A stretch of DNA of 64,000 nt, from NCBI GenBank assembly GCA_044230415.1, contig JBGARE010000001.1:497195-561194 (forward strand), given 5' to 3'. Numbering within the stretch: the first letter of the stretch is position 1; each line of letters opens with the position of its first letter. This document shows, piece by piece, positions 8,051 to 25,908 of the stretch. Under the pieces are notes generated by a model. That model searched no databases. It was not told where the DNA came from and saw only the letters and a program-made list of their open reading frames with translations. A program made the position numbers and the translations under genes. The DNA comes from Kofleriaceae bacterium (lineage in GTDB: Bacteria; Myxococcota_A; Polyangia; Haliangiales; Haliangiaceae).

Positions 8051-9748
8051 GTGGCGGATCCACGCAACCCCTCGGGCCGAAGGCCGCCCGCGTTGCCGCT
8101 TCCGCCCCCGGTCGATGACGAGCCGCCGACGGGAACGATGGCGCAGCCTCCGCGCCGGCGTCCTCCGACGAAGGATGTGACGACCGAGCTGCCGCGGCTT
8201 CCCGAGGTCAGCTTGATGAACGAGGAGTCGAGCGAGGTGCGCATCGATCACCGCGCGCTCGCACCGAATCGTCGTTCGCTCTCCGGTGCCCGCTCGATGC
8301 CCGCGCCGCCCGCGACGCTCGGCAATCGGCCGCACGTCGTCGATTCTCGTCGTGCGGCGCGACCGACGGCTCCCGACAAGCCGATCAACAAGCTGCCGCA
8401 ACAAGCGGCACCCGATCCGCAGCAACAACAGCGGCCGAAGTTCATCCCCGCGCAGACGCTCACGCCCGCACCACCGCCGCGCAGCGCGATGCAGCGCGTC
8501 CACACCGCGCAGCACTCGTCGCTGATCGGCGGCCGCTATCAGATCGTGCAGCGCATCGGTCAGGGCGGCATGGGCAAGGTCTACAAGGTCACGCACACGC
8601 ACCTGTCGCGTACGTTCGCGTTGAAGATCATCTCGAACACCGTCGCGGAGACCGACGAAGCGCGCGAGCTGTTCTATCGCGAGGCGCGCTTCGCGTCGGC
8701 GATGGTTCACCCGAGCATCACGTCCGTCGTCGATTTCGGCGAAGACGAGAAGGTCGGCATGTTCATGGTCATGGAGTTCGTCGACGGCGAACCCTTGAAC
8801 CGCATCCTGTTCCGCGAGAAGCGAATGTCGCCGCGCAAGGCGTGCGAGATCGTGCTCCAGGTCGCCGAAGCGCTGAACTACATCCACAAGCAGAACGTCG
8901 TGCACTGCGACATCAAGACCGAGAACATCCTCATCTCCGAGGAGGATCTCGAGGGCAAGCGCACGCGCCGCATCGCGAAGCTGCTCGACTTCGGCCTCGC
9001 GCGCTCGCTGACGGCCTCGCGCGCATCGACGTCGCTGTCGGGCACGCCGCACTACGTGGCGCCCGAGCGGATCCGCGGCGAGCCCGCGTCGCCGGCATCG
9101 GACGTCTACGGCGTGGGCATCTTGCTCTACGAGCTGATCTGCGGCGCCGTGCCGTGGGATGGCCCGGTGCAGAAGATCCTCGCGGGACACCTCGACGAGA
9201 AACCGAAGCCGCCGTCGCAGATCGTCGAGGGAATGGATCCCGCGCTCGAGACGCTGATCCTGCACGCGCTCGAGAAGCGTCCCGCGAATCGCCACAAGGA
9301 CATGGCGGCGTTCATCTACGAGCTGCGCACCGTCATGGACATGATGGGGTTCGGCGCTCGTCGTGCGCGCGGCGAGCCGAAGCGCGTGGTCATCGAGCAA
9401 CGCACGACCACGTCGCGCGACGAGTTCGCTCGCATCGCGTTCGACGCGTGCCGCCTACCGCTCGCGCTGCTCGGTGCGAATGGCGTCATCATCTGCGCGA
9501 ACCAAGCGTTCGCGAAGTTCGTGATGGGCGTGTCCGTCGAGGTCGAGGGCTTGCCCGTGAAGTCGACGGCGCTCGCGAATGCATGGAGCACCGCCGAGGC
9601 GGACATCCGCCGCACGATCGGCGGTCAGCTCATCCGCCGCATCATCGAGATCGACGTCGCCGAGGGCGAAGTCCGCCGCTTGCTGCTGTGGCTGGACTCG
9701 GTGAGCGCCGATCAGGTGCTGCTCGGCGTTCAGCCGCTCGATCTCTGA
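8051..9748 (+). CDS. Hanks-type Ser/Thr protein kinase with a Pro-rich N-terminal extension and a C-terminal sensor-like domain
   Basis: GQGGMGKVYKV…ALK (VAIK-like), HCDIKTENILI, DFGLAR, GTPHYVAPE. The ORF start is a GTG 35 bp from the divergent phosphatase start; downstream starts MAQPP (about 8138) or MNEESSE (about 8219) are also possible. Confidence 0.85.
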   Translation: MADPRNPSGRRPPALPLPPPVDDEPPTGTMAQPPRRRPPTKDVTTELPRLPEVSLMNEESSEVRIDHRALAPNRRSLSGARSMPAPPATLGNRPHVVDSRRAARPTAPDKPINKLPQQAAPDPQQQQRPKFIPAQTLTPAPPPRSAMQRVHTAQHSSLIGGRYQIVQRIGQGGMGKVYKVTHTHLSRTFALKIISNTVAETDEARELFYREARFASAMVHPSITSVVDFGEDEKVGMFMVMEFVDGEPLNRILFREKRMSPRKACEIVLQVAEALNYIHKQNVVHCDIKTENILISEEDLEGKRTRRIAKLLDFGLARSLTASRASTSLSGTPHYVAPERIRGEPASPASDVYGVGILLYELICGAVPWDGPVQKILAGHLDEKPKPPSQIVEGMDPALETLILHALEKRPANRHKDMAAFIYELRTVMDMMGFGARRARGEPKRVVIEQRTTTSRDEFARIAFDACRLPLALLGANGVIICANQAFAKFVMGVSVEVEGLPVKSTALANAWSTAEADIRRTIGGQLIRRIIEIDVAEGEVRRLLLWLDSVSADQVLLGVQPLDL

Positions 9749-10183: not shown

Positions 10184-13100
10184 GTGTCCACGAAGCGCAT
10201 TCGTTACCCGATGCCTCACCAGACCGATGCCGAGTGCTGCCCGTCGGCGTACACGTGCCCACCTTCACGAGTTGCCACGATCGTCGAACCGACTTCCGTG
10301 GAGACCCATTTCCGTCGCGTTGCCTCGTGTGCCGTGTTCGCCCTCGTGGTCGGCGCTGCGGAGCCCGCGCGCGCCGACATCACGTTCGCGGCCGGCTCCC
10401 TGATCATTCCCTCGGGCTCGAGCTATCAGAGCGACTGCGGTGCCGTCGCGATGTACGGCCTCGTGTACGACGTGCTGCGCGCGAATCAGTGGCTCGCCGC
10501 GAACCACTACACGCCGATCCGCGTCTACTACACGTACAAGGACACGAAGGAGTCGCCGAACCGCTGCACGCCGACGAACCTCGACGCGGGTCCCGCGTAC
10601 ACCGGCTCGACGAGCCCGGTGCTGCACTCGGATCCGAAGTGGAACGACGGTTGCGACTTCGAGCTGTTCAACGGCACGACCACGCCGGTGACGCTCGTGA
10701 CGAACACGACCGCGACGAACGCGGCGACCGATACGAACATCGCGACGATCAACACGTCGTCGAAGACCACCGTGTATCCGCGCTGGCCGACGCGCACGAT
10801 CCAGCACACGACGTCCGCCACGACGAACGTGCACACCGTGCGGTATCTCGGTGGACCCTTCGTGATCGCCGAGAAGGACGCGACCACGTTCCTCAAGCTG
10901 CTCGAGGGCTCGCTCGTCGCGAGCGACGCGAACGGCAACGCGATCAGCTTCGCGCCGTTCCGCCAGTCGATCAGCACCTGCTCGTTCGGTACGACGATCG
11001 GCGGCTACGTTCGCATCCATCGCGCCGCGGCGGCGTTCGTCGCACCGTCGCCGAAGAGCTTCATCGTGCTGCCGCCGCGCCTCGCGCTCCTCGCGACGAA
11101 CGGCTCGGGCATGACGGGCACGGTGTCGGCCGGCATCCTCGAGCAGTACCTGCAGAACGCGGGTCTCTCGTATACCGGAGCGCAAGGCTGCCCGCCGGGC
11201 GGTGCGAACGTCGCCAACGCGACGTACTGCCCGAACGGCGGCGTACGCGGACAGATCTTCGACTTCTTCGACTTCTCCGACCTCAAGAACAACCTGCTCG
11301 CCGCCGTCGATTCGTCCGGCAACCCCTACTACAAGATGCTGTGGGCCCCGCACTGGGAGCTGTCGTCCTCGAGCTCGAGGGATCCGAACGCGAACGAGGT
11401 CACCGGCATCACGAACGTCGCGAGCTTCCTCAACGGCCAGACGGGCCTCATGGCGGAGTGCGAATCGATCTCGAGCTTCGAGGGCAGCTACAAGACGGGT
11501 GTCGCGAACAAGCGCGGCACGCCGAACGGTCAGTTCCAGACCTGTCTCAATGATGGCTCGGGCAAGTGCTCGACGTCGGCGACGGTGAAGTACGGCGTCA
11601 ACCGTGACTACACGCTTCGCATCACGGCGGCGAAGCAGAACTGCACGGATCCGACGCTGTCGTCGGCCGCGAACTGCATCTACTTCGGTGCCCCCGGGGA
11701 TCCGTACGCGCAGCCGGGCGATTACATGTGGAACCCAGTGAACGGCCTCACCGAAGACTTCACGCCGAACAGCATCACCGGGACGATCTATCGCCCCGGT
11801 GTCCTGCCGCTGATCTCCGGCGTCGCGTCTCTCGACAAGACGAAGCTGACGAACAGCACGGTCGCGCGCGCGATGATCGTGTCGGACTTCGTCACGCGCG
11901 GGTCGAAGGACGACGATCCGCTGAAGGGCAACCTGATGTACGTCGCCGGTCACGACCTGACCTCCGTCGTGTCGGGCACGAAGGTCGTGCTCCAGACGCT
12001 CCTGCTCCTCGGCGAGCCGCCGCCCGCGTACGAGACCTACGAGGTGTCGCGCTCGACGCCGGTCATCGCGCCCGTCGGAACCGTCGATGCGATCGTGCAG
12101 GGCACGTTCGAGAACCTCCAGCCGACGCCGCCCGCGAAGACCGTGGTGGTCGATGCCGACGCCGCCGCGTTCGAGTTCCCGGCGATCAAAGGCCACCTCC
12201 GCGCGATGGCGAAGAACTACGTCACGACCGCCGCGACGAAGTTCTCCGATCAATACGCGCTGTTCGATGCGGCGACCCAGATCCCCGCAGCGAACTACAA
12301 CGGATGCTCGTCCACGTTCGGCGGCACGTGCCGCACGGTGTTCACGAACCTCGTCGGCGGGCTTCGTCCGGCTCGCACGCTGTGGCAATCGAGCAACGTG
12401 ACCGCGATCGGTGCATTGATCGGCTCGGACCTCTCCGCCGCGACGCACGCGACGGTGATGCAACGCGTACTCGCAGGCGTGGCGAAGTCCGATGGCTCGG
12501 GCCAATACGTCTCCAAGCTCGGCGGTGTCGATCGCTCGACGGTCGCCGTCATTCCGCCGACCGAGCTGACGAACGCGACGCGTCCGACGATCGCGTACTT
12601 CGGTGCGGCCGATGGCATGTTGCACGCGGTGTGCGCGAGCTCGACCGTGGGGACGGCGTGCCCCGCGCTCGGCAAGGAGCTGTGGGCATTTCTCCCGCGC
12701 GTCCAGATCCCGCGCATTCGCTACAACACGCAGCGCATCGAAGGCTCCCCGCGCGTGCTCGACATGTTCGGCGACTGGGACGGCACCGGCCTTCGCAGCT
12801 ATCGCACGATCCTGATGTTCCAGACCGCGTCGGGTGATCCGACCGTCACCGTCGCGAAGCCGGCGATCTACGCGCTCGACGTCACCGATCCGACGAACCC
12901 GAAGATCCTGTGGGAGTACACCGCGCCCGCGTCGCGCGGCGCGTTCGAGCTCGGCCAGGGCCTCGTGCTCGCCGCCGGTTCGGTCGCGCTCGGCACCACG
13001 AACAAGTACTACGTGATCGCGCAGACCAACAACGGCGGCACCGGCGGCGCGGGCAACGTCGTCACCGCGATCGACATCGAGTCCGGTCAGAAGGTGTGGC

Positions 13101-13861
13101 AGACGGCGCACGCGTATCCCGCGGCGCGGGTGGGCGCGAACCCCAGCGTTCCCGCAACCGGCATTCCGGGGGGCGCCGTTGCCATTCGCAGCAAGGAGAC
13201 CGGGCACCTCACCGATGTCGTGTTCGGCACGCTCTACGGCGACATCTGGCAGCTCGATGCGCGCACCGGCGAGAACAAGCACGTCGACAAGCCCCTGTTC
13301 CGGTACGGCTCGGACTTCCATCCGTTCGGCGCCGCGCCGACCCTGTACTCGAAGTCCAGCAACGTCTTCGCCGTGATGATCAGCGGTTCGTACACCGACC
13401 TCGTCGCGACGACGCAGTGGTCGACGAACGCCCAGTCTGCGATCGGAGTCTCGATGGCGGCGCCCGCATCGGCCGCGACGCTGACCGAAACCTCGGGCGC
13501 ACCCTACGTGCCGCTCGTCTACACCATCACGTCCGGCGAGAAGGCCTCGTCGCAGGCGATCGTCGTCGGTGACGAGATCTACTTCACGACCGACGGCGGC
13601 GACGTCAACGCCGGCACCTACGGCACGACGAGCACCGCGACCGGCCACGCGTACAAGGTGGACATCAACACGAACACCGGCTCGAGCGTCGTGATCACGG
13701 GTGGCGCGGGCTCGCTCGTTGCCTCGGGCACGGCGATCTACGCGAGCTCTCGCGATGGCGCGCAGCGGCTCACGACCGATGCGACCGGCACGACCGGCGA
13801 GGCCGTGAACAACAACCCCGACCCGAAAGTGACCAAGCGGATATGGCTACGCTCCAACTAA
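10184..13861 (+). CDS. pilY1: PilY1-like type IV pilus tip-associated adhesin (paralog A), about 1200 aa
   Basis: Signal peptide (…ASCAVFALVVGAAEPARA). The C-terminal half carries PilY1/PilC beta-propeller signature motifs (TIAYFGAADGMLHAVCAS, ELWAFLPR, YRTILMFQTASG, AIYALDVTDPTNPKILWEY). Followed by a PilX-like gene. The start codon is uncertain; Met at 10184 or 10211, or a GTG near 10298. Confidence 0.8.
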   Translation: MSTKRIRYPMPHQTDAECCPSAYTCPPSRVATIVEPTSVETHFRRVASCAVFALVVGAAEPARADITFAAGSLIIPSGSSYQSDCGAVAMYGLVYDVLRANQWLAANHYTPIRVYYTYKDTKESPNRCTPTNLDAGPAYTGSTSPVLHSDPKWNDGCDFELFNGTTTPVTLVTNTTATNAATDTNIATINTSSKTTVYPRWPTRTIQHTTSATTNVHTVRYLGGPFVIAEKDATTFLKLLEGSLVASDANGNAISFAPFRQSISTCSFGTTIGGYVRIHRAAAAFVAPSPKSFIVLPPRLALLATNGSGMTGTVSAGILEQYLQNAGLSYTGAQGCPPGGANVANATYCPNGGVRGQIFDFFDFSDLKNNLLAAVDSSGNPYYKMLWAPHWELSSSSSRDPNANEVTGITNVASFLNGQTGLMAECESISSFEGSYKTGVANKRGTPNGQFQTCLNDGSGKCSTSATVKYGVNRDYTLRITAAKQNCTDPTLSSAANCIYFGAPGDPYAQPGDYMWNPVNGLTEDFTPNSITGTIYRPGVLPLISGVASLDKTKLTNSTVARAMIVSDFVTRGSKDDDPLKGNLMYVAGHDLTSVVSGTKVVLQTLLLLGEPPPAYETYEVSRSTPVIAPVGTVDAIVQGTFENLQPTPPAKTVVVDADAAAFEFPAIKGHLRAMAKNYVTTAATKFSDQYALFDAATQIPAANYNGCSSTFGGTCRTVFTNLVGGLRPARTLWQSSNVTAIGALIGSDLSAATHATVMQRVLAGVAKSDGSGQYVSKLGGVDRSTVAVIPPTELTNATRPTIAYFGAADGMLHAVCASSTVGTACPALGKELWAFLPRVQIPRIRYNTQRIEGSPRVLDMFGDWDGTGLRSYRTILMFQTASGDPTVTVAKPAIYALDVTDPTNPKILWEYTAPASRGAFELGQGLVLAAGSVALGTTNKYYVIAQTNNGGTGGAGNVVTAIDIESGQKVWQTAHAYPAARVGANPSVPATGIPGGAVAIRSKETGHLTDVVFGTLYGDIWQLDARTGENKHVDKPLFRYGSDFHPFGAAPTLYSKSSNVFAVMISGSYTDLVATTQWSTNAQSAIGVSMAAPASAATLTETSGAPYVPLVYTITSGEKASSQAIVVGDEIYFTTDGGDVNAGTYGTTSTATGHAYKVDINTNTGSSVVITGGAGSLVASGTAIYASSRDGAQRLTTDATGTTGEAVNNNPDPKVTKRIWLRSN

Positions 13862-14382
13862 ACCGTCGCCGCTCGACGAAGCGCGGCAGCGCGATGCTCG
13901 TGACGATGATCGTCATCGGCGCGCTCCTGGCCGGTGCTGCGACACTCACGAACATGCAGATGCAGTCGCAGCGGTCGCAGGACCTCACGAAGTCCAACGT
14001 CTCGTCGCTCTACTGCGCGGAGGCGGGCATCGCCGCGGCGCGTACGGCCCTCGCAACCCACTACTCGAGCTGGGGCTTGGGCCTCGCGCAGTCCGCCGGC
14101 GGCGACAAGACCGAACCGAGCTGGCTCGCGACGGCGATCGGGAGCCACGACATCGACGGCGACAACCAGGCCGACTTCGCCGCGTACATCTACGACAACA
14201 ACGATGATCCGGTCGACAACAACCCCTCGGCGGACAACGACCTCCAGGTGTTCATCGCGGTCTCGTGTACCAAGTACCCCGAGACCCCGAACACGATCAC
14301 CGAGCTCGTGAAGTACAACGGCGGCGTCGGCTGCCACCCGTCGCAGATTGGCGGCTGCGGCGGCGAAGGCAACAGCAACTAG
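13843..14382 (+). CDS. pilX: PilX-like minor pilin (PilX_N-type N-terminus), paralog A
   Basis: N-terminus RRRSTKRGSAMLVTMIVIGALLAGAATLTNMQMQ matches the PilX N-terminal hydrophobic segment. A conserved C-terminal Cys pattern is shared with the paralog at 25366. It overlaps the pilY1-A stop by 19 nt. Confidence 0.7.
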   Translation: MATLQLNRRRSTKRGSAMLVTMIVIGALLAGAATLTNMQMQSQRSQDLTKSNVSSLYCAEAGIAAARTALATHYSSWGLGLAQSAGGDKTEPSWLATAIGSHDIDGDNQADFAAYIYDNNDDPVDNNPSADNDLQVFIAVSCTKYPETPNTITELVKYNGGVGCHPSQIGGCGGEGNSN

Positions 14383-14414
14383 TTGGTGTACGTTCCCTCC
14401 GCTCAACGGAGGGA

Positions 14415-15821
14415 ATGATGAAACTCTCGAAGATCGTGATTGCCGCGACGCTGTTCGCGGCCAGCGGAGCCATCGCAGACCAGGCGATGCTCCGTCCCGC
14501 TGTTCCGGTCGCCGCGGATCCGAAGATCGATTTCGTGAAGTACACGCTTCCGAATGGTCTCGAGGTGCTGCTGTCGTCGGACAAGAGCGTGCCGCTCGTG
14601 GCGGTGAACGTCTGGTACCACGTCGGAAGCGGCAACGAGAGCTACGGCAAGAGCGGCTTCGCCCACCTGTTCGAGCACATGCTGTTCCAGGGCTCGAAGC
14701 ACGTCGGTGTCGACAATCACTTCGACATCCTCAAGAAGATCGGCGCCGATGGTGTGAACGGCACCACGAACCCGGATCGCACGAACTACTACGAGATCGT
14801 CCCGAGCAATCAGCTGGAGACGGCGCTGTGGCTCGAGAGCGATCGCATGGGCTACTTGCTCGATCCGCCCGGATCCGTGAAGGACCCGGCGAACCACTTC
14901 AAGACCAGCCTCGACAATCAGATCGAGGTCGTCCGGAACGAGCGCCGCCAGCGCTACGACAACGTGCCGTATGGCAAGGCGCGGTTCGCGACGTACATGG
15001 CGATGTATCCCGAGGGTCATCCGTATCGCTATCTGACGATCGGCAAGCACGAGGACCTCGCGAGTGCGTCGACCGACGACGTGAAGAACTTCTTCAAGAG
15101 CTGGTACGTGCCGGCGAACGCGACGATCGCGATCGTCGGTGACTTCGACGTCGAAGAAGCGAAGAAGGCAGTCGACAAGTGGTTCGGCAAGTTTCCGAAG
15201 AGCGCGAAGCCGCGCGTCGTACCGGCGCCGATGCCCTCGATCAAGAGCAAAGAGATCAGCGTCGACGACGAGTTCGCGAAGCTGCGCCAGATCCAGTTCA
15301 CGTGGCACTCGCCCGCGAACTTCGCCGAGGGTGACGCCGAGCTCGACATCGCCGCGAACGCGTTGACGCGAGAAGGTCCGGGCCGGCTGTACAAGGCGCT
15401 CGTGTACGCGAACAAAGCGCAGAGCGTGTTCGCGTCGCAGTCGGGTAGCGGGTTCTCCGGGCTGTTCACCGTGACGGTGACGCTCAAGAGCGACTCGAAC
15501 CTCGACGAGATCAAGAAGATCGTCATGAACGAGGTGGCGAACATCACGACGAAGCCGCTCGATGCAAAGGAGATCTCGCGCGTGATCGTCGCCAACGAGT
15601 CGTTCGCGATCCGCGGGCTCGAGACGGTGTTCGGTCGATCGAGCGTGCTGCAGCAATACAACCACTACCTGGGTGATCCGAATCGGATCACCTGGGACCT
15701 CGATCGGTACCGGAATACCAACGCAGAGAAGATCCGCGCGACCGCGGCGAAGTACTTGCGCACGGACAACGTGCTGACCGTGATCACGAACCCCGTGAAG
15801 GGCGACAAGGGAGCGAAGTGA
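14415..15821 (+). CDS. Peptidase M16 (insulinase/pitrilysin family) zinc protease, secreted, catalytic HxxEH subunit
   Basis: RBS-like GGAGGGA precedes ATGATG. Signal peptide MMKLSKIVIAATLFAASGAIA. Inverted zinc motif HLFEHMLFQGSKH and the M16 N- and C-domain pattern. Confidence 0.85.
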   Translation: MMKLSKIVIAATLFAASGAIADQAMLRPAVPVAADPKIDFVKYTLPNGLEVLLSSDKSVPLVAVNVWYHVGSGNESYGKSGFAHLFEHMLFQGSKHVGVDNHFDILKKIGADGVNGTTNPDRTNYYEIVPSNQLETALWLESDRMGYLLDPPGSVKDPANHFKTSLDNQIEVVRNERRQRYDNVPYGKARFATYMAMYPEGHPYRYLTIGKHEDLASASTDDVKNFFKSWYVPANATIAIVGDFDVEEAKKAVDKWFGKFPKSAKPRVVPAPMPSIKSKEISVDDEFAKLRQIQFTWHSPANFAEGDAELDIAANALTREGPGRLYKALVYANKAQSVFASQSGSGFSGLFTVTVTLKSDSNLDEIKKIVMNEVANITTKPLDAKEISRVIVANESFAIRGLETVFGRSSVLQQYNHYLGDPNRITWDLDRYRNTNAEKIRATAAKYLRTDNVLTVITNPVKGDKGAK

Positions 15822-17488
15822 TGAAGCGCCACATCTGGATGATCGCGGGCGTTGTCCTGGCCGCCTGCAAGACCGCACCGGTACCACCGCCGGAGCCGCC
15901 GAAGCCCGACGAGCCGGTCGGCACTCTCCCGAATCCCGACGGCGAGCCGGACCAGCCGATGCCGCCGAAGAACGACGAGGTGATCAAGGTGACTCAGACC
16001 GCGCAGCCACAGCAGTTGCAGTTTCCGGAGGAGGAGTTCCGCGCGACGCAGCCCGTCGCCGGTGCGCCGCGTCCGTTCCGTCTGCCGGTGATGAAGCCGT
16101 TCACGCTCAAGAACGGCGTCAAGGTGTTCCTCGTCGAGCAGCACACGCTGCCGATCATCTCGGTCGACCTCAACTTCGAAGGCGGATCGCTGATCGATCC
16201 GAAGGGCAAGGAGGGCCTCGCGAGCGTGTGCATGTCGATGCTCACCGAAGGCACCGAGTCCCTCGACAAGATCCAGTTCGCCGAAGCGCTCGGTGACATC
16301 GCCTCGGGCGTCAGCTCGTACGCGGGCGACGACACCCACGGCGTCACGTTCAACACGCTGACCAAGCATCTCGACGCGACGTTCGCGCTGTTCTCGGACT
16401 CGCTGCTGAAGCCCGGCTTCCGGCAGTCCGACTTCGATCGCATGATCAGCCGCCGCATCGAGAACGTGAAGCAGTCGAAGGGCAACCCCGCCTCGGTCGC
16501 GGGTCGCGTCAGCGGCGCGGTGCTCTACGGGCTCGCGCATCCGTACGGCGCGATCAACACGGAAGCATCGCTCAAGGCGATCACGCTCGATGACTGCAAG
16601 GCCGTCGCGAAGAAGTGGCTCGCGCCCGGCGGTGCGAAGCTATTCGTCGTCGGTGATCTCACCGAGCAGCAGGTCCGCGACTACTTCGAGGGTCCGCTCC
16701 TCGCGAGCTGGAAGGGCAAGATGCCCGCGGTGCCCGCGCTCGCGGCACCGAAGGGTCCCAAAGGCCGCATCTTCTTCGTCAACGTGCCCGGCGCCGCGCA
16801 GTCGCAGGTCTCGATGATGCACTTCGGTCCCAAGCGCACCGCGCCGGACTACTTCCCGAACTCGATGTTGGCCGCGGTGTTCGGCGGTGGCTTCTCGAGC
16901 CGCATCAACATGAACCTGCGCGAGGACAAGGGCTACTCGTACGGTGCGCGCGGCGGCTTCTCGTACTCGAAGCAGTACGGAACGTTCCAAGCGAGCGCGT
17001 CGGTGCGCACGGACTCGACGTACCAGACGCTCCTCGAGATCGATCGCGAAGTGAAGGATCTCGTGAAGGGCACGCGGCCGGTCGTCGCCGACGAGCTGGA
17101 TCGCGAAAAGCAGGGTGCGATCCTCGGTCTGCCGGGTCGGTTCTCGACGGGGCAGGCCGCGCTCGGGCAGTTCCGCATGTTGGTCTACTTCGGCTTGCCG
17201 ATGGACTACTACAACACCGTCGTCGAGAAGGTCGGCAAGGTGACCGAGGCGCAGCTGAAAGTAGCCGCGAAGAAGCAGCTCAAGCCTGCGACCGCTGTCT
17301 ACCTCGTCGTTGGCGATGGCAACGCGAAGGTCGTCGTCCGCAACGCGGATACGAAGAAGGACGAGCCGTACCAGAAGGACGGCAAGCAGCTCACGCTGCG
17401 CGAGGCGCTCGCCGAGCTGGCCGCGCGCGGTGATGTGGGCGCGGGTGGGCTCGTCGAGCTGGACGCCGATGGCCAGCTCGTGAAGTAG
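15818..17488 (+). CDS. Peptidase M16 family protein, lipoprotein, non-catalytic partner subunit (no HxxEH)
   Basis: ATGA start/stop overlap with the preceding M16 gene. Lipoprotein signal MMKRHIWMIAGVVLAAC. M16-like fold motifs are present, but no HxxEH was found. Confidence 0.75.
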   Translation: MMKRHIWMIAGVVLAACKTAPVPPPEPPKPDEPVGTLPNPDGEPDQPMPPKNDEVIKVTQTAQPQQLQFPEEEFRATQPVAGAPRPFRLPVMKPFTLKNGVKVFLVEQHTLPIISVDLNFEGGSLIDPKGKEGLASVCMSMLTEGTESLDKIQFAEALGDIASGVSSYAGDDTHGVTFNTLTKHLDATFALFSDSLLKPGFRQSDFDRMISRRIENVKQSKGNPASVAGRVSGAVLYGLAHPYGAINTEASLKAITLDDCKAVAKKWLAPGGAKLFVVGDLTEQQVRDYFEGPLLASWKGKMPAVPALAAPKGPKGRIFFVNVPGAAQSQVSMMHFGPKRTAPDYFPNSMLAAVFGGGFSSRINMNLREDKGYSYGARGGFSYSKQYGTFQASASVRTDSTYQTLLEIDREVKDLVKGTRPVVADELDREKQGAILGLPGRFSTGQAALGQFRMLVYFGLPMDYYNTVVEKVGKVTEAQLKVAAKKQLKPATAVYLVVGDGNAKVVVRNADTKKDEPYQKDGKQLTLREALAELAARGDVGAGGLVELDADGQLVK

Positions 17489-17561
17489 CTACCCCACCCT
17501 TAGCTAACGTCATAACCCGGTCGTAACTTCCGACGCTGGGGCGACAGCCGACTCAACATGA
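17489..17561. promoter_or_regulatory. Locally AT-richer intergenic stretch upstream of the truncated pilY1 paralog (putative promoter region)
   Basis: ccttagctaacgtcataacccggtcgtaacttccgac is clearly less GC-rich than the flanks and lies immediately 5' of the GTG start at 17562. Confidence 0.3.
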
Positions 17562-19253
17562 GTGAGTACCCTGTCCCGCCGTGTTCGTTCGGTTCTGACC
17601 GCCGCGCTGTCGATGACCGCCACCGCGTTCGCGCAGTCGCCGTCCTCGCAGGGTGACGTCGTCGACGAGGTCGCGCACGCGGCGCCGATCGTCGCGCTGA
17701 TCGATGCGACCTCGACGCTGGTGCACGGAACGACCGAGCGCGGCGCTACGATGACCGCGGTCGAGACGTCGTCGGACATCAACGCGTTTCGGTTTCCGGC
17801 CACCCTCGGCCACCTCCGCGGCTACGCGACGAATCGCATCCCGGAGTCGGCGCGCTACGGCGAGCACCCCGCGCTGTTCGATGCAGCGACGATGATCCCG
17901 CCGGTCAGCTACACCGGTTGCGGTCGGTTCGATTCGACGTGCCGCTCCGTGTTCACGACGGTGACGCCCGGCGCGCACCCCGCGCGCGTGATGCTCGAGG
18001 AGAAGACGCTGTCGACGGTGGGCCCGCTCCTCGCGAGCGGCACGGCGCTCTCGCCGGCGGATCAGCGCGTGCTCGTGCATCGCGTGTTGGCCGGCCGCGA
18101 GATCGCACCGAACACGTTCGCGCCTGCGCTCGGCGGCATCGACCACTCGACGGTCGCGGTGATCCCGACGAGCCCGATGACGGGCGTCGAGCGCCCGACG
18201 ATGATCTACGTCGGCGCGGCCGACGGAATGCTGCACGCGATGTGCGGCAGCGTGAAGGCCGGCGTCTGCGATCGCATCGGCCGCGAGCTGTGGGCGTACA
18301 TTCCGCGCACGTCGCTCGGTTCATTGCGCACGAACACGGCGACGGTCGACGGCTCGCCGCACGTCGTCGAGGTGATGGGCGATTTCGACGCCGCCGGTCG
18401 CCGCTCGCTGCACACGATCTTGCTGTTCTCGACGGGCGCGAGCGGTTCGGTCTACGCGCTCGACATCACGGACCCGGCCGATCCATCCGTGGTGTGGGAG
18501 TACGCCTCGCGCGATGTCGCGGGCACGACGATCGCCACCGGCCGCGTCCAGCTCCAGACCGGACCGAAGTACTTCGCCTACGTCCCGACGACGACCGGCG
18601 TGACCGCGCTCGACCTCGAGACCGGTCGTGTCTCGTGGCAGCACGCGGGGCAGGGCGCGAGCGGCGTGGCCGTGACCGTGACCAAGGGCCAGGTCCAGGA
18701 CGTGGTGTTCGGAACCGAGCGCGGCGAGCTGTGGGTGCTCGATGCGCTCACCGGTACGAACCGCCGCCGTGGTCCGGCCTTCCAGTTCTCCGAGCCGGGG
18801 CATCCGATCACCAACGCGCCGGCGATCTACACGAACGCCGATGGTGAGACATACGCGCTCGCCGTGTCCGGCGGCCCGAAGGCTGCACGCACGCAGTACG
18901 CGATCGCGATCTCGCTCAGCGCCCGCCCCAACCCCGCTCCGCTCGACGAGCAGAGCGCCGATTCGACCCGGCTGCCAATCGTGTTGGCATTCGACGAGCG
19001 CACGAGCTCGCGCCCGCTCGTGATGGGAACCGAGCTGGTGTTCGCGACGGCGTCGAAGGCGTACCGCGTGTCGTTCGTCACGAGCGCGATCGCCACCGCC
19101 GAAGCGCCCGACAACGCATCGCTGTCCGCAACGAGCACGGGGCTGTTCGCAACGGGCCTTACGTCGTTCGGTCGGGTCGAGATCGCGATGAGCGACCGCG
19201 CTGCCCACAGTGTCTCCACGGTGGCCGTCGACGACGATTCGTCGTGGTACTGA
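17562..19253 (+). CDS. PilY1 C-terminal beta-propeller-domain protein (N-terminally truncated PilY1 paralog with its own signal peptide)
   Basis: GTG start. Signal peptide MSTLSRRVRSVLTAALSMTATAFAQ. The remaining 530 aa align motif-for-motif with residues about 640-1225 of pilY1-A (FRFPATLGHLRGY, YTGCGRFDSTCRSVFTT, MIYVGAADGMLHAMCGS, ELWAYIPR, HTILLFSTGASGSVYALDITDPADPSVVWEY). Confidence 0.8.
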   Translation: MSTLSRRVRSVLTAALSMTATAFAQSPSSQGDVVDEVAHAAPIVALIDATSTLVHGTTERGATMTAVETSSDINAFRFPATLGHLRGYATNRIPESARYGEHPALFDAATMIPPVSYTGCGRFDSTCRSVFTTVTPGAHPARVMLEEKTLSTVGPLLASGTALSPADQRVLVHRVLAGREIAPNTFAPALGGIDHSTVAVIPTSPMTGVERPTMIYVGAADGMLHAMCGSVKAGVCDRIGRELWAYIPRTSLGSLRTNTATVDGSPHVVEVMGDFDAAGRRSLHTILLFSTGASGSVYALDITDPADPSVVWEYASRDVAGTTIATGRVQLQTGPKYFAYVPTTTGVTALDLETGRVSWQHAGQGASGVAVTVTKGQVQDVVFGTERGELWVLDALTGTNRRRGPAFQFSEPGHPITNAPAIYTNADGETYALAVSGGPKAARTQYAIAISLSARPNPAPLDEQSADSTRLPIVLAFDERTSSRPLVMGTELVFATASKAYRVSFVTSAIATAEAPDNASLSATSTGLFATGLTSFGRVEIAMSDRAAHSVSTVAVDDDSSWY

Positions 19254-19368: not shown

Positions 19369-19920
19369 ATGAGACACCCGCGTCGTGGATTCACGCTGAT
19401 CGAAATGATGATCGTGGTCGCGCTCATCGCGATCCTGGCGATCGTCGTTGTTCCGTCGTTCTTCCGCGAGAGCGGCAAGACTCGCTCGATCACCGAAGTG
19501 ACGCCGATGTTCGCCGAGATGGCGAACAAGCTCGAGCAATACAAGTCCGACACGGGCAAGTACGTGAACGCGACGACGCTACAGAACGACACGCCCGTCG
19601 TCTGCCCGTCGGCGCCGAGCAGACCGGGCGTCGACGCACTCACCACGTGTGTCGGTAGTGGATCCGCGTGGGCCGATCTGCGCGTGAATCCGCCGCAGTC
19701 GAAGCTGCACTGCAGCTACGAGATCCAAGTCGGCGACGTCGGTGATTCGTATATCGGCGCGCTGCCGGCGGGCATCACGTTCACCGCGCCGACGACGATC
19801 GGCTGGTGGACGCTTCTCGCCACGTGCGATGCGGATGGCCAAGGAACGTCGTCGGTGAACGGCAAGTTCTTCCAGTCGAGCGTGGACGCCACCATCCAGA
19901 AAGTGAACGACGCGCTGTGA
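19369..19920 (+). CDS. Type IV pilin-like protein (prepilin-type N-terminal cleavage/methylation domain)
   Basis: MRHPRRGFTLIEMMIVVALIAILAIVVVPSF is the class III signal peptide with the conserved G-1/F+1/E+5. An AT-richer promoter-like region lies upstream (19254-19368). Confidence 0.8.
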   Translation: MRHPRRGFTLIEMMIVVALIAILAIVVVPSFFRESGKTRSITEVTPMFAEMANKLEQYKSDTGKYVNATTLQNDTPVVCPSAPSRPGVDALTTCVGSGSAWADLRVNPPQSKLHCSYEIQVGDVGDSYIGALPAGITFTAPTTIGWWTLLATCDADGQGTSSVNGKFFQSSVDATIQKVNDAL

Positions 19921-20432
19921 CTCGCAGGCGTTCACACGCGGGCTTCACGCTCGTCGAGATGATGGTGGTCGTCGCGATCGTCGCGATCCTCTCCGGCCTT
20001 CTGATTTCGACCTCGAGTCGTCCGGTCGGTGCGAACGCGCGGAACATGTCCGAGACCGTGGTCTCGACGATCAACTTCGCGAAGCTCCGTGCTGGCGCGA
20101 CCCGCCGCGTGCACACGGTGCAAATCACCGATACGCAGCTCGCCGTGTACGCCTGCGCCACCACCGGCCTCGTCTGCACCACGCCGCCCGGCGATCTGAT
20201 CCAGCAGGTCCGCGTCGCCAAGGGCGTCACGATCCTGAACACGTCGAGCACGCTGTACCCCGCGGGTGGTGCGAGCGTGTCGGCGCCGTCGAGCGCGCTC
20301 AACTCCGCGCTCGCCATTCGCCCCGACGGTCAGGCGACGCCAATGACCATCTTCCTCACCGACACGAAGGACTCGTGGCGCGTGCTCGTCTATCACGTGA
20401 CCGGCGGCGCATACGCGCGACAGGGTTGGTAA
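19917..20432 (+). CDS. FimU/FimT/GspH-like minor (pseudo)pilin
   Basis: GTG start overlapping the upstream stop (ctGTGA). VTRRRSHAGFTLVEMMVVVAIVAILSGLLIS is a prepilin signal. The size and pattern resemble the GspH/FimT family. Confidence 0.7.
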   Translation: MTRRRSHAGFTLVEMMVVVAIVAILSGLLISTSSRPVGANARNMSETVVSTINFAKLRAGATRRVHTVQITDTQLAVYACATTGLVCTTPPGDLIQQVRVAKGVTILNTSSTLYPAGGASVSAPSSALNSALAIRPDGQATPMTIFLTDTKDSWRVLVYHVTGGAYARQGW

Positions 20433-20439
20433 CGGAGCC

Positions 20440-23400
20440 TTGGAGAACACCATGCACCAAACACCCAAGCTCATCGGCAAGCTCGTCACTACCATCGCTC
20501 TCGTCGGAGTGACGGCGGTGGCGACACCAGCGCTTGCCGACACGAAGGACTTCAAGGCGGGCTCGCTCATCATCCCCGCGACCTCCGTGTTCCAGACCGA
20601 CTGCGGTGCCGTGTCGATGTACGGCCTGATCTACAACGTGCTTCGCGCGAACGCGTGGCTCGATGCCGATCCGGGCTACGGCCCGATCGAGATCTACTAC
20701 GCGTACAACACCGCGAAGAGCTCGCCGAATCGCTGTACGCCGACGAACCTGCACACGAGTCCGACGGTGTCGACCACGTGGGAGGATGGCTGCGACTTCG
20801 CGATCAGCGATAGCGGCGGCACGACCAACATCGTGTCGCTCGTGAACAACAAGGTCGCCACCACCGACTCGACGATCACGACCTACGACACGAGCGGCAA
20901 GGGCAACGTCTACCCGCGCTACGCGCTCTCGCAGGTGATCACCGCGGCTGCCGGCGTGAACACGGTCCGGTACTCCGGCGGTGCGTTCGTGATCGACAAG
21001 TCCGATGCGGACACGTTCATCGGTCTGCTCCGCGGAACGATCCCCGCGAAGGACAACGGCGTCACGATCAACTACGCGCCGTGGCGCCTGTCGGACGCTG
21101 CGGGCGTCCCCACCGCATGCACGTTCAACACGGCGTGGTCGACGTCCACCGTCGGCGGCTGGGTCAACATTCACCGCGCGCTTGTCGACTTCACGGCACC
21201 GGTCCCCAAGCTGTTCAACTCGAACCCGCCGCGCCTCGCGCTGCTCGCGCTCGACACCTACAACGGCACGGGCACGCTCTCGAACAACATCCTCCAGGGC
21301 TACCTCAGCCGCGCCGGTCTCACGTTCACGGGCGCGAACGGCTGCCCGACAAACAGTCCACACAAGCTGATCGCCGCGACCTGTCCCACCGGCGACACGA
21401 GCGGCGAGATCTACGACACGTTCGACTTCGACGACGTCCTCAACGACCGACTCGACAACACGAAGTACAAGATGTTCTGGGCGCCGCACTGGGAGCTGGA
21501 CAGCTCGACGGGTGGCGGCACCTTGAACGAGAAGGCGGCGATCACGAAGATCGCCACGTTCCTCGAGGGCAAGACGGGCGTGATGGCGGAGTGCGCGTCG
21601 ATCTCGAGCTTCGAGGGCTCGCAGAGCCGCGAGTCAGGGACCGAAGCGAAGTTCCAGACCTGTGAAGATAACGCCGGCGCATGTGCCAGCCCTGAAGGAA
21701 ACCGTGGTTTCCAGGTGAACTCGGGCGGCTGGATCTCGTCCGATCCGAGCGGCCTCTTGCGCAACTGCACCGATGCCACCACGAGCGTCGGCGGCAACTG
21801 CTACTACATCTCGTATCCGTCCGATCCGTACGTGCAGATCGGTGACTTCCGCTGGTACGCGGACGATGGCGTCGTCGCGGACTTCCTGCCCAATACGGCG
21901 TCTCCCGCGGCGCGGTACAAGAACGGCGTCCTACCGCTGATCTCGGGCGTGACCGCCAACGATGTCACGAAGCTCGATACACCCGCCAATGCACGAGCGA
22001 GCGGGCTGCTCACGGGTGACTACGTGTCGCGCAACCAGAAGGACGACGCCGCGGGGAAAGGCAACATCCTCTACCTCGGTGGCCACGACCTGACCGAGTC
22101 CGTCGCCGGTACGAAGGTGGCGCTCCAGACGCTGCTCCAGCTCGGCACGCCGGATGTCACGTCGTACACGACGGAGATCTCGCGCGCGACGCCGATCATC
22201 GCGCTCCTCGGTAGCGGCCAGGCGCTGGTGCAGGGAACGTACGAGTCGGTGCAGCCGATCGCCGGTACGCCGAAGAAGATGACGCTCGACACCGATGCAC
22301 CCACGTTCGAGTTCCCCTTCGTGCGCGGCCACCTCCGTGGCTACACGAACGTCGGCACGACCGCGGCGACGTTCGAGACGCTCGGCGCCTCGACCTGGGA
22401 CACGACGACGCTCATCCCGACCGCGGACTACGCCGGTTGCACGCCGTTCACCGCGAATTGTCGCACGGTGTTCACGAACCTCGTCGCGAGCTGCAGCCGC
22501 GACTCGACGAAGTGCACGAACACGGTGCTCTCGGATGACACCGCGGACGAAGTGGGACCGCTGATGGCGAGCGATCTTCTGCCCGCCACGCAGACCACGT
22601 TGGTCCGCCGCACGCTGGAAGGTGTTCCCGATGCCTTGCTGGCGAACAAGTACAAGGCGCGGCTCGGTGGCATCGATCGTTCGACGGTCGCGGTCATCCC
22701 GCAGAGCTCGCTCGCGGGTCTCGGTGCGCGTCCGACGATGATCTACGTGGGTGCGAGCGACGGCATGATCCACGCGATCTGCGGTGACAGCGTCGCTCCA
22801 TGCGATACCCCGGGACGCGAGCTGTGGGCGTTCCTCCCGCGCAATCAGTTGTCGTCGGTGCGCAACAACGAGACGCGGATCGATGGGTCGGTGCGCGTGC
22901 AGGACATGTACGGCAACTTCGACGGGACCGGAAAGTCGTATCGCACGGTGCTCGTGTTCCAGTCGTCGCCGGCCGCCGCGACCGCCACGGCAGCGGTGTA
23001 CGCCCTCGACGTGACGTTCCCCGGTGCCCCCAAGATCCTCTGGGAGCATCCGACGAACGGTAGCGGTCTCGCGATCACGATGGGCAAGATCAGCACCGGC
23101 CAGCTCGCCGCCTTCGCAGAGACCAACAGTGGTACGTCGACGGCGGCCACGGAGGTTCGCGCGATCGATGTCGAGACCGGCCTCGCGATCTGGACGAAGT
23201 CGATCGCGATGCCGGCCTCGCGCACGGTGTCGCGTCAGGTGCCGGCCACCGGCATCCCGGGTGGTGCGGTCGCGGTCGATCTCACCGACAGCGGAAGCAT
23301 GACCGACGTCGTGTTCGCGACTTTGTACGGCCAGATCTTCCGGTTGAACGCAGCGGACGGCGTCAATCCGTACGAGCCGAACCCGCTGTTTCAATTCACG

Positions 23401-23967
23401 GAAGACTTGAAGCCGTTCGGTGCGGCGCCGGCGTTGTTCGCGAGCGGGCAGGTCTACGCGGTCGCCGCGTCGGGTGGCTACCTCGACTACGACACCGATA
23501 CCGAGCCGCTGTGGACGAGCAGCAGCACGATGCAACAAGCGGTTGCGGTCGCGATCAACACGCCGGTCGCGAGCACGCCCCTGACCGAAACGACGACGCC
23601 TTCGCCGACCGGCCTCAAGTTCAAGTACGACCTCGGCGCGGGACAGCTCAGCTACTCGCAGGCACAAGTGATCGGCGATCAGATCTTCCTGACGACGGAC
23701 ACCACCGACGTCAACGCGACGTCGTACGGCACCGGTAGCGACACGGGCACGCTGCATCGCATCGACCTCTCGGGCGGCAGTGCGACGACGATCGCGATCA
23801 TGGGTGGTGCGGCGAGCATCGGTCGTCAGGGCACCACGACGTTCGCGGCGACGGGTGAGAAAGCGCAGCAGCTCTCGCTGTCGGCCGGATCGTCCGCACC
23901 GACCGAGGGTGTCAATGGTGGCTCGCAATCGAAGGTGACGCGTCGCCTCTGGCTCCGCACGCTATGA
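20440..23967 (+). CDS. pilY1: PilY1-like type IV pilus tip-associated adhesin (paralog B), about 1170 aa
   Basis: Signal peptide (LIGKLVTTIALVGVTAVATPALA). Collinear with pilY1-A throughout (DFKAGSLIIPATSVFQTDCGAVSMYGLIYNVLRA…, beta-propeller motifs MIYVGASDGMIHAICGD, ELWAFLPR, AVYALDVTFPGAPKILWEH). Confidence 0.8.
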   Translation: MENTMHQTPKLIGKLVTTIALVGVTAVATPALADTKDFKAGSLIIPATSVFQTDCGAVSMYGLIYNVLRANAWLDADPGYGPIEIYYAYNTAKSSPNRCTPTNLHTSPTVSTTWEDGCDFAISDSGGTTNIVSLVNNKVATTDSTITTYDTSGKGNVYPRYALSQVITAAAGVNTVRYSGGAFVIDKSDADTFIGLLRGTIPAKDNGVTINYAPWRLSDAAGVPTACTFNTAWSTSTVGGWVNIHRALVDFTAPVPKLFNSNPPRLALLALDTYNGTGTLSNNILQGYLSRAGLTFTGANGCPTNSPHKLIAATCPTGDTSGEIYDTFDFDDVLNDRLDNTKYKMFWAPHWELDSSTGGGTLNEKAAITKIATFLEGKTGVMAECASISSFEGSQSRESGTEAKFQTCEDNAGACASPEGNRGFQVNSGGWISSDPSGLLRNCTDATTSVGGNCYYISYPSDPYVQIGDFRWYADDGVVADFLPNTASPAARYKNGVLPLISGVTANDVTKLDTPANARASGLLTGDYVSRNQKDDAAGKGNILYLGGHDLTESVAGTKVALQTLLQLGTPDVTSYTTEISRATPIIALLGSGQALVQGTYESVQPIAGTPKKMTLDTDAPTFEFPFVRGHLRGYTNVGTTAATFETLGASTWDTTTLIPTADYAGCTPFTANCRTVFTNLVASCSRDSTKCTNTVLSDDTADEVGPLMASDLLPATQTTLVRRTLEGVPDALLANKYKARLGGIDRSTVAVIPQSSLAGLGARPTMIYVGASDGMIHAICGDSVAPCDTPGRELWAFLPRNQLSSVRNNETRIDGSVRVQDMYGNFDGTGKSYRTVLVFQSSPAAATATAAVYALDVTFPGAPKILWEHPTNGSGLAITMGKISTGQLAAFAETNSGTSTAATEVRAIDVETGLAIWTKSIAMPASRTVSRQVPATGIPGGAVAVDLTDSGSMTDVVFATLYGQIFRLNAADGVNPYEPNPLFQFTEDLKPFGAAPALFASGQVYAVAASGGYLDYDTDTEPLWTSSSTMQQAVAVAINTPVASTPLTETTTPSPTGLKFKYDLGAGQLSYSQAQVIGDQIFLTTDTTDVNATSYGTGSDTGTLHRIDLSGGSATTIAIMGGAASIGRQGTTTFAATGEKAQQLSLSAGSSAPTEGVNGGSQSKVTRRLWLRTL

Positions 23968-24365
23968 CCACGCACCGCAAACCACGTCTCCGTCGGCGTC
24001 GTCGTGGCGTCGGCTTCACCATGATCGAAGTCATGGTGGCGCTGCTCCTCACCGCGATCGCGGCGTCGGGAATCATCGCTCTGTTCATGGTGCAGACGCG
24101 GTCCTCCGGATACTCGCGTCACGCCACGGAAGCGACGATCCTCGCGCAGGACGAGATGGAGCGCTTGCGTGCGATGAACATCAACGCCGGTAGCGGGACC
24201 GCGTCCGGGCTCAACGAGTTCGGGCAGACCGGCGGCATCTTCACGCGTAGCTGGGCGATCACCGCGAGCGCGGGCTCGCACCTCGACGTCACCGTGTCGG
24301 TGTCGTGGGACGAGGATGGCAACGCACCGCGGACGGTCACCCTCGTCTCGAGGAAGAGCCCGTGA
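23964..24365 (+). CDS. pilV: PilV-like minor pilin
   Basis: RRRRRGVGFTMIEVMVALLLTAIAASGIIALFM prepilin signal, about 130 aa. ATGA overlap with the pilY1-B stop. Confidence 0.7.
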   Translation: MTTHRKPRLRRRRRGVGFTMIEVMVALLLTAIAASGIIALFMVQTRSSGYSRHATEATILAQDEMERLRAMNINAGSGTASGLNEFGQTGGIFTRSWAITASAGSHLDVTVSVSWDEDGNAPRTVTLVSRKSP

Positions 24366-25369
24366 GTCGTCGCATCGCCAGACGTCGCCGCCGTGGAGGC
24401 TTCACGCTCGTCGAGCTGATGGTGTCGCTCGTGATGTTCTCGTTCGCGATCGCGGGCGTGCTGGCGGTGGCCGTGTCGATGGCGAACGGGTTCCGCGAGC
24501 AACGCGCGGGCGTCGGCACCGAGGGCGCGGCGCGGTCGGCGATGGAGTTTCTGAGCGATGCGATCCGCGGCGCGAGCCCCGGTATCGAGAGCGGCATCAT
24601 CTATCCGATGGATGACTCGGAGTGCAACACGGTCACCGGCCTCGCCAACGGCGTGAACCGTTCGTTCCGCGCGACGATGGGCAACGCGACGGCGCCCGAT
24701 TCGGTGACGGTCACGTTCGCGTACGGCTCTGTCGTCACGACGGCCCTCACCGGGTACGACACGGCGGCGCTCGGCGGTACGATCACCGTCGAGAACGGGT
24801 CGCAGTTCCAGAACGGTGACTTCATCGTGCTGACGGACTTCTCGAACGCAGTACTGATCAAGGTCGATGTCTCGGGCAACACGCTCACCTACGACGCGAC
24901 ACCGGCGTGTACGCAAGCGATCAACATTCCGGCGGGCGCGCTCGCCATTCGTGCACTGCGCGCGCGGTTCTACATCCAGAACCTCGACGGTATCCCGACG
25001 CTGTTCATGGATCCCGATCCGACCGACGGCGTGACCAACGACGACGAGCCGCTCGCCGAAGGCATCGAGGATCTCCAGGTCGTGCTCGGCATCGACTCCG
25101 GCTCCGACGGGCTCGGTGCGGAGAATGCTGTGGTCGACGGCGACGAGTGGTGGGGCAACCTGCCGGGCGAGACGATTCCCACGACCGGCGCGATCACGAT
25201 GCGTGCGGTGCGTCTCTCGCTCGTCGCTCGTGCCCTCGTCCCCGTTAGCGGTACGGCGTCGTACTTCCGGCCCGCGCTGGAGGATCACGACGGCAGCACC
25301 ACCGACAATTTCCGGCGACGTGTGCTCACGTCGATCATCGAGGTCCGCAACATGTTGGGGTCCAAATGA
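24362..25369 (+). CDS. pilW: PilW-like minor pilin
   Basis: GTG start overlapping the upstream stop (GTGA). VSRRIARRRRRGGFTLVELMVSLVMFSFAIAGVLAV prepilin signal. About 335 aa, typical of PilW. Confidence 0.7.
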   Translation: MSRRIARRRRRGGFTLVELMVSLVMFSFAIAGVLAVAVSMANGFREQRAGVGTEGAARSAMEFLSDAIRGASPGIESGIIYPMDDSECNTVTGLANGVNRSFRATMGNATAPDSVTVTFAYGSVVTTALTGYDTAALGGTITVENGSQFQNGDFIVLTDFSNAVLIKVDVSGNTLTYDATPACTQAINIPAGALAIRALRARFYIQNLDGIPTLFMDPDPTDGVTNDDEPLAEGIEDLQVVLGIDSGSDGLGAENAVVDGDEWWGNLPGETIPTTGAITMRAVRLSLVARALVPVSGTASYFRPALEDHDGSTTDNFRRRVLTSIIEVRNMLGSK

Positions 25370-25908
25370 GGCGCACGCGTCGTCGGCAACGGACTCGTCA
25401 GCGTGGCAGCGCGATGCTGGTCACGCTGATCATCATCGGTGCGCTGCTCGCCGGCGCGGGCGTGTTGCTCTCGGTGCAGATGGCGTCGAACCGCTCGTCG
25501 GATCTCTCGCGGTCCGGAATGACCTCGTTGTACTGCGCGGAGGCAGGCCTCGCGGCCGCGCGCCAAGTGGTGGCCGAGCACTACATCGATTGGAAAGCGA
25601 GCCTGTGCACGGCCACGACGTGCACCGAGCCGACGTGGATGAGCGATGGCATCGACCTCAAGACGTTCCCGAAGGAGCACGATCTCGACGGTGACGGCCA
25701 GGCCGACTTCACGGTCTGGCTTCGTGACAACTACGACGAGCTCGCGGGGAACGACCCGGGGGTCGACTCCGATCTCCAGGTCTACATCGTCTCGAAGTGC
25801 ATCAAGTTCGCGGACACCCCGAAGCAAGTCGAGGAGCTGATCCTCTTCGAAGGTGGCATCGAGTGCTATCCGTGGCAGCTCGGTGGTTGCACCGGCGGCG
25901 GGCAGTAG
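25366..25908 (+). CDS. pilX: PilX-like minor pilin (PilX_N-type), paralog B
   Basis: MRRTRRRQRTRQRGSAMLVTLIIIGALLAGAGVLLSVQMAS. Clear paralog of 13843..14382 with a shared C-terminal motif (DLQV[FY]I…C.K[FY]…EL…GG..C[HY]P.Q[IL]GGC.G.G). ATGA overlap with pilW. Confidence 0.7.
   Translation: MRRTRRRQRTRQRGSAMLVTLIIIGALLAGAGVLLSVQMASNRSSDLSRSGMTSLYCAEAGLAAARQVVAEHYIDWKASLCTATTCTEPTWMSDGIDLKTFPKEHDLDGDGQADFTVWLRDNYDELAGNDPGVDSDLQVYIVSKCIKFADTPKQVEELILFEGGIECYPWQLGGCTGGGQ

Follow-up and report, generated by a model that had tools for sequence, protein, structure and literature searches.

The stretch of DNA analysed here, 64,000 nucleotides of contig JBGARE010000001.1 of a Kofleriaceae bacterium (the window), has a GC content of about 66% and includes the minor-pilin region of a type IVa pilus. 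In this region, a gene for a short PilY1 protein shares a same-strand block with the core minor pilin genes (the pilin, FimU, PilY1-B, PilV, PilW and PilX-B); two full-length paralogs, PilY1-A and PilY1-B, are encoded on either side of it (Table 1). The N-terminal domain of full-length PilY1/PilC proteins forms the adhesive pilus tip. The short protein is without this domain of about 550 residues, and its identity as a conserved, secreted, propeller-only PilY1 paralog can be regarded as secure, with little room for doubt.

When the short protein is aligned to its two long neighbours by BLASTP, residues 36–496 match residues 620–1136 of the 1225-residue PilY1-A (37% identity, E 8e-92) and residues 579–1086 of the 1175-residue PilY1-B (36% identity, E 4e-75). 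Both alignments are collinear and confined to the C-terminal halves of the long proteins, in agreement with the sequence-only reading, which had described a stand-alone PilY1 paralog with a signal peptide, without the N-terminal domain and comprising the C-terminal half only. The mature protein begins about ten residues before the propeller module, and no large N-terminal (adhesin) domain is present. The best sequence match of the family profile to the Protein Data Bank (PDB) is the C-terminal domain of P. aeruginosa PilY1 (PDB entry 3HX6, E 5.5e-13), and the Pfam profile PQQ_2 scores 31.9, above its cut-off of 27.6. The AlphaFold2 model is a confident one (predicted local distance difference test score, pLDDT, 84.3; predicted template modelling score 0.85), with disorder predicted only in the signal peptide and in residues 545–563. 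The protein contains just four cysteines, in two invariant pairs, C120/C127 and C228/C236.

Several motifs that might be sought in such a protein are missing. The calcium loop of the P. aeruginosa protein, DNNSDGVAD, corresponds to TVTKGQVQD in the short protein and is three residues shorter there than in the long paralogs. A motif scan found none of calcium motifs 1 to 3 in the short protein, PilY1-A or PilY1-B, so that the suggestion of a calcium-binding module, made from the sequence alone, has to be given up. RGD and metal ion-dependent adhesion site (MIDAS) motifs were likewise not found in the short protein.

The short protein is not a recent copy of PilY1-A or PilY1-B, since it is closer to the long PilY1 proteins of related genera (41–43% identity by BLASTP) than to its two neighbours (36–37%), and since in a neighbour-joining tree its family forms a long branch at the base of the clade of those long proteins. 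A recent tandem duplication of PilY1-A or PilY1-B is thus not supported.

The reading frame of the gene is closed immediately upstream, where a TGA in the same frame (17559–17561) abuts the GTG start. The GC content at third codon positions (GC3) is 0.89, all neighbouring genes being alike in this respect, and the frame is therefore coding. A missed start or a frameshift, by which sequence upstream would encode the N-terminal domain and make the gene a third full-length pilY1, had been named beforehand as the outcome that would overturn the sequence-only reading. It is excluded by the in-frame TGA, by the end of the M16 gene at 17488 and by a tblastn search of the window with five N-terminal domain queries (those of PilY1-A, PilY1-B and three relatives), which found only the two known N-terminal domain loci; the propeller loci number three.

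The gap that separates M16b from the short gene is richer in AT than the open reading frame (ORF), with a GC content of 57.5% versus 69.6%, which is ordinary for intergenic space. A scan of positions 13500–20600 for sigma-70-like promoters found none where 0.6 would be expected, and a scan for promoters and terminators around the gene on the forward strand gave only a spurious match inside the pilin gene, with no terminator between the short gene and its neighbours on either side. Of the promoter-like region attributed to this gene earlier, the AT-richness stands, and the promoter is not supported. As there is neither a match to the promoter consensus nor a terminator, the gene may be co-transcribed with its neighbours. 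RNA folding of the gap is not significant (z = -1.7). The gap contains a 17-mer, CATAACCCGGTCGTAAC (17511–17527), which occurs once in the window and is conserved in three of four loci, being kept in L001 and, with two mismatches, in L002, and not found in L004; it may be a regulatory site.

At its amino-terminus, the short protein shows the n-h-c pattern of a signal peptide, ending in a ..ATAFA/QSP site. The A-x-A/QSP pattern is kept in those orthologs whose N-terminus is fully called, and in four loci the DNA sequence shows the GTG start to be conserved as well. In the model, residues 1–32 have a pLDDT below 50. From inspection of the sequence, the protein is predicted to be soluble and secreted by means of a Sec type I signal peptide. 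That the signal peptide arose de novo, as first proposed, is not upheld along with its presence: it is no less likely that the ancestral signal peptide was kept when an internal segment was deleted. A second propeller-only lineage, described below, keeps the ..ARAQ signal peptide end of its long relative.

At the other end, the short protein finishes in the consensus ..VSTVxxDDDSSWY-COOH, with the tail end reading ..VSTVAVDDDSSWY in the window. Conservation rises from 0.72 in the linker (residues 541–556) to 0.93 in DDDSSWY, as calculated over ten orthologs and the fragment P0164. The long relatives all end in a basic motif (KVTRRLWLRTL, KVTKRIWLRSN, TVSRKLWLRIQ, SRRLLWMNG). When the C-terminal tails are set side by side (STVAVDDDSSWY versus SKVTRRLWLRTL), the terminal tryptophan aligns with the tryptophan of the long plugs and is the sole residue shared with the long motif. 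The last 14 residues carry a net charge of -3 in the short protein, as opposed to +3 and +4 in the long paralogs. The terminal strands of the PilX proteins contain conserved acidic residues (..QVEELILF.. and ..TITELVKY..), which appear to fit the basic plugs of the long PilY1 proteins. The acidic tail of the short protein resembles a docking motif, probably for another site.

The tail can be compared with what is reported for plugs elsewhere. In AlphaFold-Multimer models of the M. xanthus proteins, a C-terminal strand of PilY1 is predicted to join the PilX sheet (PMC11046646). In N. meningitidis, piliation requires the final 12 residues of PilC, which also suffice for it. Models of this segment by itself show disorder; it attaches to PilK, the counterpart of PilX, by strand augmentation, and permutation of two charged residues of this plug abolishes both PilK binding and activity (10.64898/2026.09.18.752573).

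A search of 5.8 billion proteins for orthologs yielded at least nine clusters from Kofleriaceae metagenome-assembled genomes (MAGs), with 77–94% identity and the same architecture and position. The named ortholog cluster is labelled Kofleriaceae bacterium (Myxococcota, Haliangiales). Lengths as called are 544–564 residues, apart from one over-extended call of 603 residues, and the reading frame is intact in at least ten lineages. In loci L001 to L004, the gene order M16, M16, short PilY1, pilin, FimU, PilY1 (about 1175 residues), PilV, PilW, PilX is maintained. In the more distant loci L005, L010 and L011, which have no short gene, M16b is followed directly by the pilin, FimU and a long PilY1; at this junction, the short gene thus represents an insertion specific to one clade, and the M16 pair, being present in these loci as well, is independent of it.

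When the window is compared with L001, L002 and L004, the short PilY1 proteins are 81, 79 and 77% identical, with a ratio of nonsynonymous to synonymous substitution rates (dN/dS) of 0.24–0.31. The corresponding identities are 77, 75 and 74% for PilY1-B (dN/dS 0.26–0.33) and 70–88% for the minor pilins (dN/dS 0.13–0.39). The synonymous rates are possibly compressed by the strong GC3 bias, although the comparison between genes stands. Purifying selection acts on the short gene as strongly as on the pilus genes next to it, and a pseudogene is rejected on the conservation of its reading frame and its dN/dS. A functionless, decaying remnant of a duplicated pilY1 might be suspected from a product that is shorter than all paralogs, with trimmed loops and lost motifs, but this is very improbable and effectively refuted by the conservation data, as not only the reading frame and GC3 but also the signal peptide and the terminal motif are conserved.

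Propeller-only PilY1 proteins also exist outside this family. A search of representative proteins gave 808 matches with E < 1e-3, which include two further genuine propeller-only proteins with a signal peptide from other Myxococcota, P0115 and P0108. Each is the sole PilY1 of a tight FimU-PilY1-PilV-PilW-PilX operon (in L009 and L008, respectively). They belong to another clade than the window family, with which they share 32–33% identity, and the N-terminal domain has therefore been lost at least twice. A short version is also present in L007, while the syntenic locus L006 contains a long version with an N-terminal domain of about 495 residues. Frameshifts, near residue 480 in L007 and near position 10000 in L006, are possibly errors of the source assemblies. 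The short version of L007 and L009 keeps the ..ARAQ signal peptide end of the long L006 version, which suggests that an internal segment was cleanly removed at the same domain boundary, immediately ahead of EVSRSxPI. Among the matches of 600–700 residues, only P0115/P0050 and P0108 are genuine short forms; P0017, P0011, P0041, P0104 and P0036 are fragments or frameshifted long genes. A gene for 484 residues upstream of FimU in L008 was considered as a detached N-terminal domain and rejected, as it shows no similarity.

P0115 and P0108 resemble the short protein of the window in their location in minor-pilin operons and in having the signal peptide joined directly to the EVSRSxPI start of the C-terminal module. 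They differ from it in being the sole PilY1 of their operon, in having a full-size C-terminal region and in ending with a basic ..R-x-L-W-[LM].. plug.

Table 1. Position of the short PilY1 gene, its parts and the genes around it; the last three rows refer to other loci
Feature	Position	Strand	Remarks
Ser/Thr kinase	8051..9748	+	Pfam/NCBIfam
PilY1-A	10184..13861	+	ORF of 1225 aa; true start probably internal, just 5' of the signal peptide
PilX-A	13843..14382	+	partner of PilY1-A
M16a secreted peptidase	14415..15821	+	Pfam; with HLFEH
M16b secreted peptidase	15818..17488	+	Pfam; without HxxEH
Gap, M16b stop to short PilY1 GTG	17489..17561		73 bp
Short (propeller-only) PilY1 paralog gene	17562..19253	+	563 aa; GTG start, TGA stop; from ORF list
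Predicted Sec/signal peptidase I signal peptide	17562..17636	+	residues 1-25, VSTLSRRVRSVLTAALSMTATAFA followed by QSPSS; read from the sequence by inspection
PilY1-type C-terminal domain	17667..19193	+	residues 36-544; N-terminal cap region, then beta-propeller, apparently 8-bladed
Predicted disordered C-terminal tail	19194..19250	+	residues 545-563; pLDDT about 24
Terminal motif DDDSSWY	19230..19250	+	candidate plug-like linear motif; near-invariant
Pilin-like gene	19369..19920	+	183 aa; GFTLIE N-terminus, N_methyl match; Shine-Dalgarno-like GAGGGAAG just 5'
FimU/GspH-like minor pilin	19917..20432	+	GspH match; GTG overlaps pilin stop
PilY1-B	20440..23967	+	1175 aa
PilV	23964..24365	+	
PilW	24305..25369	+	
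PilX-B	25366..25908	+	
Propeller-only PilY1 P0115	L009, 7293..9278		661 aa
Propeller-only PilY1 P0108	L008, 10001..11998		665 aa
Propeller-only PilY1 of L007	L007, 10001..11987		frameshift near residue 480

Within the same-strand block, PilY1-B, PilV, PilW and PilX-B (20440–25908) are the canonical priming-complex genes, and a Wza-like exporter comes after PilX-B. The pilin-like gene in front of FimU is a fifth pilin-like gene; it is kept in L001 to L004, and L005, L010 and L011 each have a gene at the corresponding place. Its product is a candidate minor pilin outside the core set, with which the tail of the short PilY1 may interact. For the N-terminal domain of PilY1-B, no von Willebrand factor A (vWFA) or lectin identity was obtained, the best match of its model being to ThuA/class I glutamine-amidotransferase-like folds; vWFA and lectin domains were therefore dropped as candidates for the domain that the short protein is missing.

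Several Kofleriaceae-like genera (L001 to L005, L010 and L011) have the secreted M16 pair immediately 5' of the minor-pilin operon, and the M16 subunit without HxxEH carries a lipoprotein-like LAAC. PilY1-A and PilX-A, whose genes overlap by 19 nt, form an additional PilY1 with its own PilX, and the location of the pair varies among related genomes. In L004 it is missing between the kinase and M16a, while in L001 PilY1-A lies across an inverted kinase segment and PilX-A was not located there. The pair thus resembles a module that moves or rearranges. A small ORF on the reverse strand (9758–10054, 98 residues), situated between the kinase and PilY1-A, has a signal-peptide-like N-terminus and a Cys- and Asp-rich mature part. 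The EF-hand-like motif Dx[DN]xDGxxD, usually cited for PilY1, is found here in the PilX proteins, as DLDGDGQAD in PilX-B (residue 106) and DIDGDNQAD in PilX-A (residue 103); in L001, L002 and L004, the orthologs of PilX-B retain DLDGDG.

Compared with the PilY1/PilC family at large (PDB entry 3HX6; Neisseria PilC1 and PilC2), the short protein has about 535 mature residues instead of about 1000–1700, and no N-terminal domain. It also lacks the EF-hand-like calcium site, which is common in the family although not universal, and several propeller loops are deleted. Its tail is acidic, unlike the plugs of its own long paralogs. A full-text literature search for truncated, short or N-terminal-domain-less PilY1 homologs returned engineered constructs only. 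Engineered K. kingae PilC1 and PilC2, reduced to signal sequence and C-terminal domain, give normal piliation in strains that are non-adherent and do not twitch (PMC9000118), and so provide an experimentally tested expectation for the function of the short protein. The architecture is the same, with a signal peptide joined to the propeller region. However, the K. kingae constructs are laboratory deletions with the native plug, whereas the short protein is natural and conserved, is encoded beside a full-length paralog and has a diverged tail. In M. xanthus, PilY1.3 without its vWFA domain still pulls down PilX, PilW, FimU and PilO and yields no pili (PMC7541494).

The PilY1 classes of myxobacteria (M. 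xanthus PilY1.1 to PilY1.3 and clades 1.4a and 1.4b) come from the same phylum and share with our locus the presence of several PilY1 paralogs and the linkage to minor pilins. A survey from 2026 covers 150 PilY1 proteins from 67 Myxococcota genomes, with one Kofleriaceae MAG among them, and divides them into clades by N-terminal domain and length (PMC13190605). It contains no propeller-only class, and of the entries below 600 residues only a Sorangium pair is discussed, which is called an annotation split. The calcium motifs are absent from its clade 1.4a, as they are from the short protein. The four cysteines of the latter contrast with clade medians of 17–41, a low cysteine content being a trend of the short clades.

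We somewhat favour a role of the short protein as an adhesin-less PilY1 in the priming or capping of the type IVa pilus. It would be exported to the periplasm and act in the type IVa pilus machine, either in the position of PilY1 atop the priming complex of minor pilins or within the vestibule of the secretin. By supporting or modulating assembly, it would give pili or machine states without the adhesive head that is carried by PilY1-B. The terminal ..VSTVxxDDDSSWY-COOH would be its likely docking element. As this motif is acidic where the long plugs are basic, the partner or the register probably differs, and candidates would be the extra pilin whose gene follows directly, or PilX-B bound in a different register. 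A link to the pilus is given by the fixed synteny with the minor-pilin operon in L001 to L004. An adhesin-less PilY1 is plausible because the C-terminal-only constructs of K. kingae piliate and because natural propeller-only proteins exist as the sole PilY1 of their operons. A more elaborate form, to which we assign a low probability, is that in this Kofleriaceae clade two co-encoded genes have divided the functions of PilY1 between them, one serving pilus biogenesis or capping and the other adhesion. The charge-inverted DDDSSWY would then target another minor pilin (for example the extra pilin downstream) or another PilX register, and the cell might change from bald to adhesive pilus tips and back, or keep idle secretins plugged.

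A number of observations weigh against a role in priming or capping. The Pfam profile T4P_PilY1 scores 23.8, below its cut-off of 28.1. The protein is streamlined, with seven loops trimmed relative to the long paralogs, including the TGIPGGAVAVD-type region and the calcium loop, and surfaces for the pilus machine may therefore have been lost. Each long PilY1 of the window is paired with its own PilX, while the short protein is without one. Its tail is opposite in net charge and does not contain the [ST]-R-[RK]-L-W-L pattern that every long relative has; given the charge specificity of the Neisseria plug, canonical docking to PilX-B or PilX-A is doubtful. Finally, the M. xanthus protein without vWFA makes no pili, and loss of the N-terminal domain is therefore not always tolerated.

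The short protein is plausible as an alternative or competing tip component, and the competing form of this idea takes up some of the same observations. As a competitive regulator or decoy, the short protein would bind the PilY1-A or PilY1-B site on the minor-pilin complex or the secretin, without supporting adhesion and perhaps without supporting extension, so that priming complexes are titrated and the number of adhesive pili is tuned. Its gene is in the same block as that of a full-length PilY1, the two PilY1-type proteins of this conserved block have a single PilX between them, the short protein retains its propeller core and terminal tryptophan, and the truncated M. xanthus protein binds minor pilins in just such an unproductive way. 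We nevertheless consider a decoy unlikely. Plug binding is specific for sequence and charge, and since the tail differs from the long plugs in both, straightforward competition for one PilX site is not what would be expected by default. The decoy is also at odds with the propeller-only proteins that are the sole PilY1 in other genomes and with the piliation supported by the K. kingae constructs.

A propeller that has acquired a new periplasmic or secreted function, not tied to pili, is quite improbable. It could be a BamB-like scaffold, or a partner or substrate presenter of the M16 pair, with ..SSWY as a recognition tag. However, the M16 pair is kept next to the pilin operon in genera without the short gene. 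The BamB equivalog profile of NCBIfam (TIGR03300) reaches 18.4 bits, where the cut-off is 285, and no lipobox cysteine is present in or after the signal peptide, the first cysteine being residue 120. From the eight-bladed propellers of the BamB/PQQ_2 type, the short protein differs in this non-lipoprotein signal, in its PilY1-specific cap motifs and disulfides and in its pilus-gene context. Moreover, the homology to PilY1 spans the non-propeller cap region and the two conserved disulfide pairs, and the gene evolves at the rate of the pilus genes and not at the slower rate of the M16 genes.

[quoted passage not shown] That the module alone is sufficient for pilus assembly has so far been shown only in engineered strains. 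The short PilY1 is the natural counterpart of the engineered C-terminal-only constructs, and its charge-inverted tail bears on the new plug model. Its presence beside a full-length paralog provides a system in which it can be addressed how the sequence of a plug determines its partner, and whether bacteria adjust pilus stickiness by exchanging tip proteins. If the division of functions between two co-encoded genes were true, evolution would itself have set up a test of the plug model and of the specificity between plug and pilin. Surveys in which short PilY1 entries are discarded as fragments will miss the propeller-only class. That nature makes use of adhesin-less tips would be shown by a conserved natural gene for the module only, and likewise by the unrelated lineages whose operon has no other PilY1.

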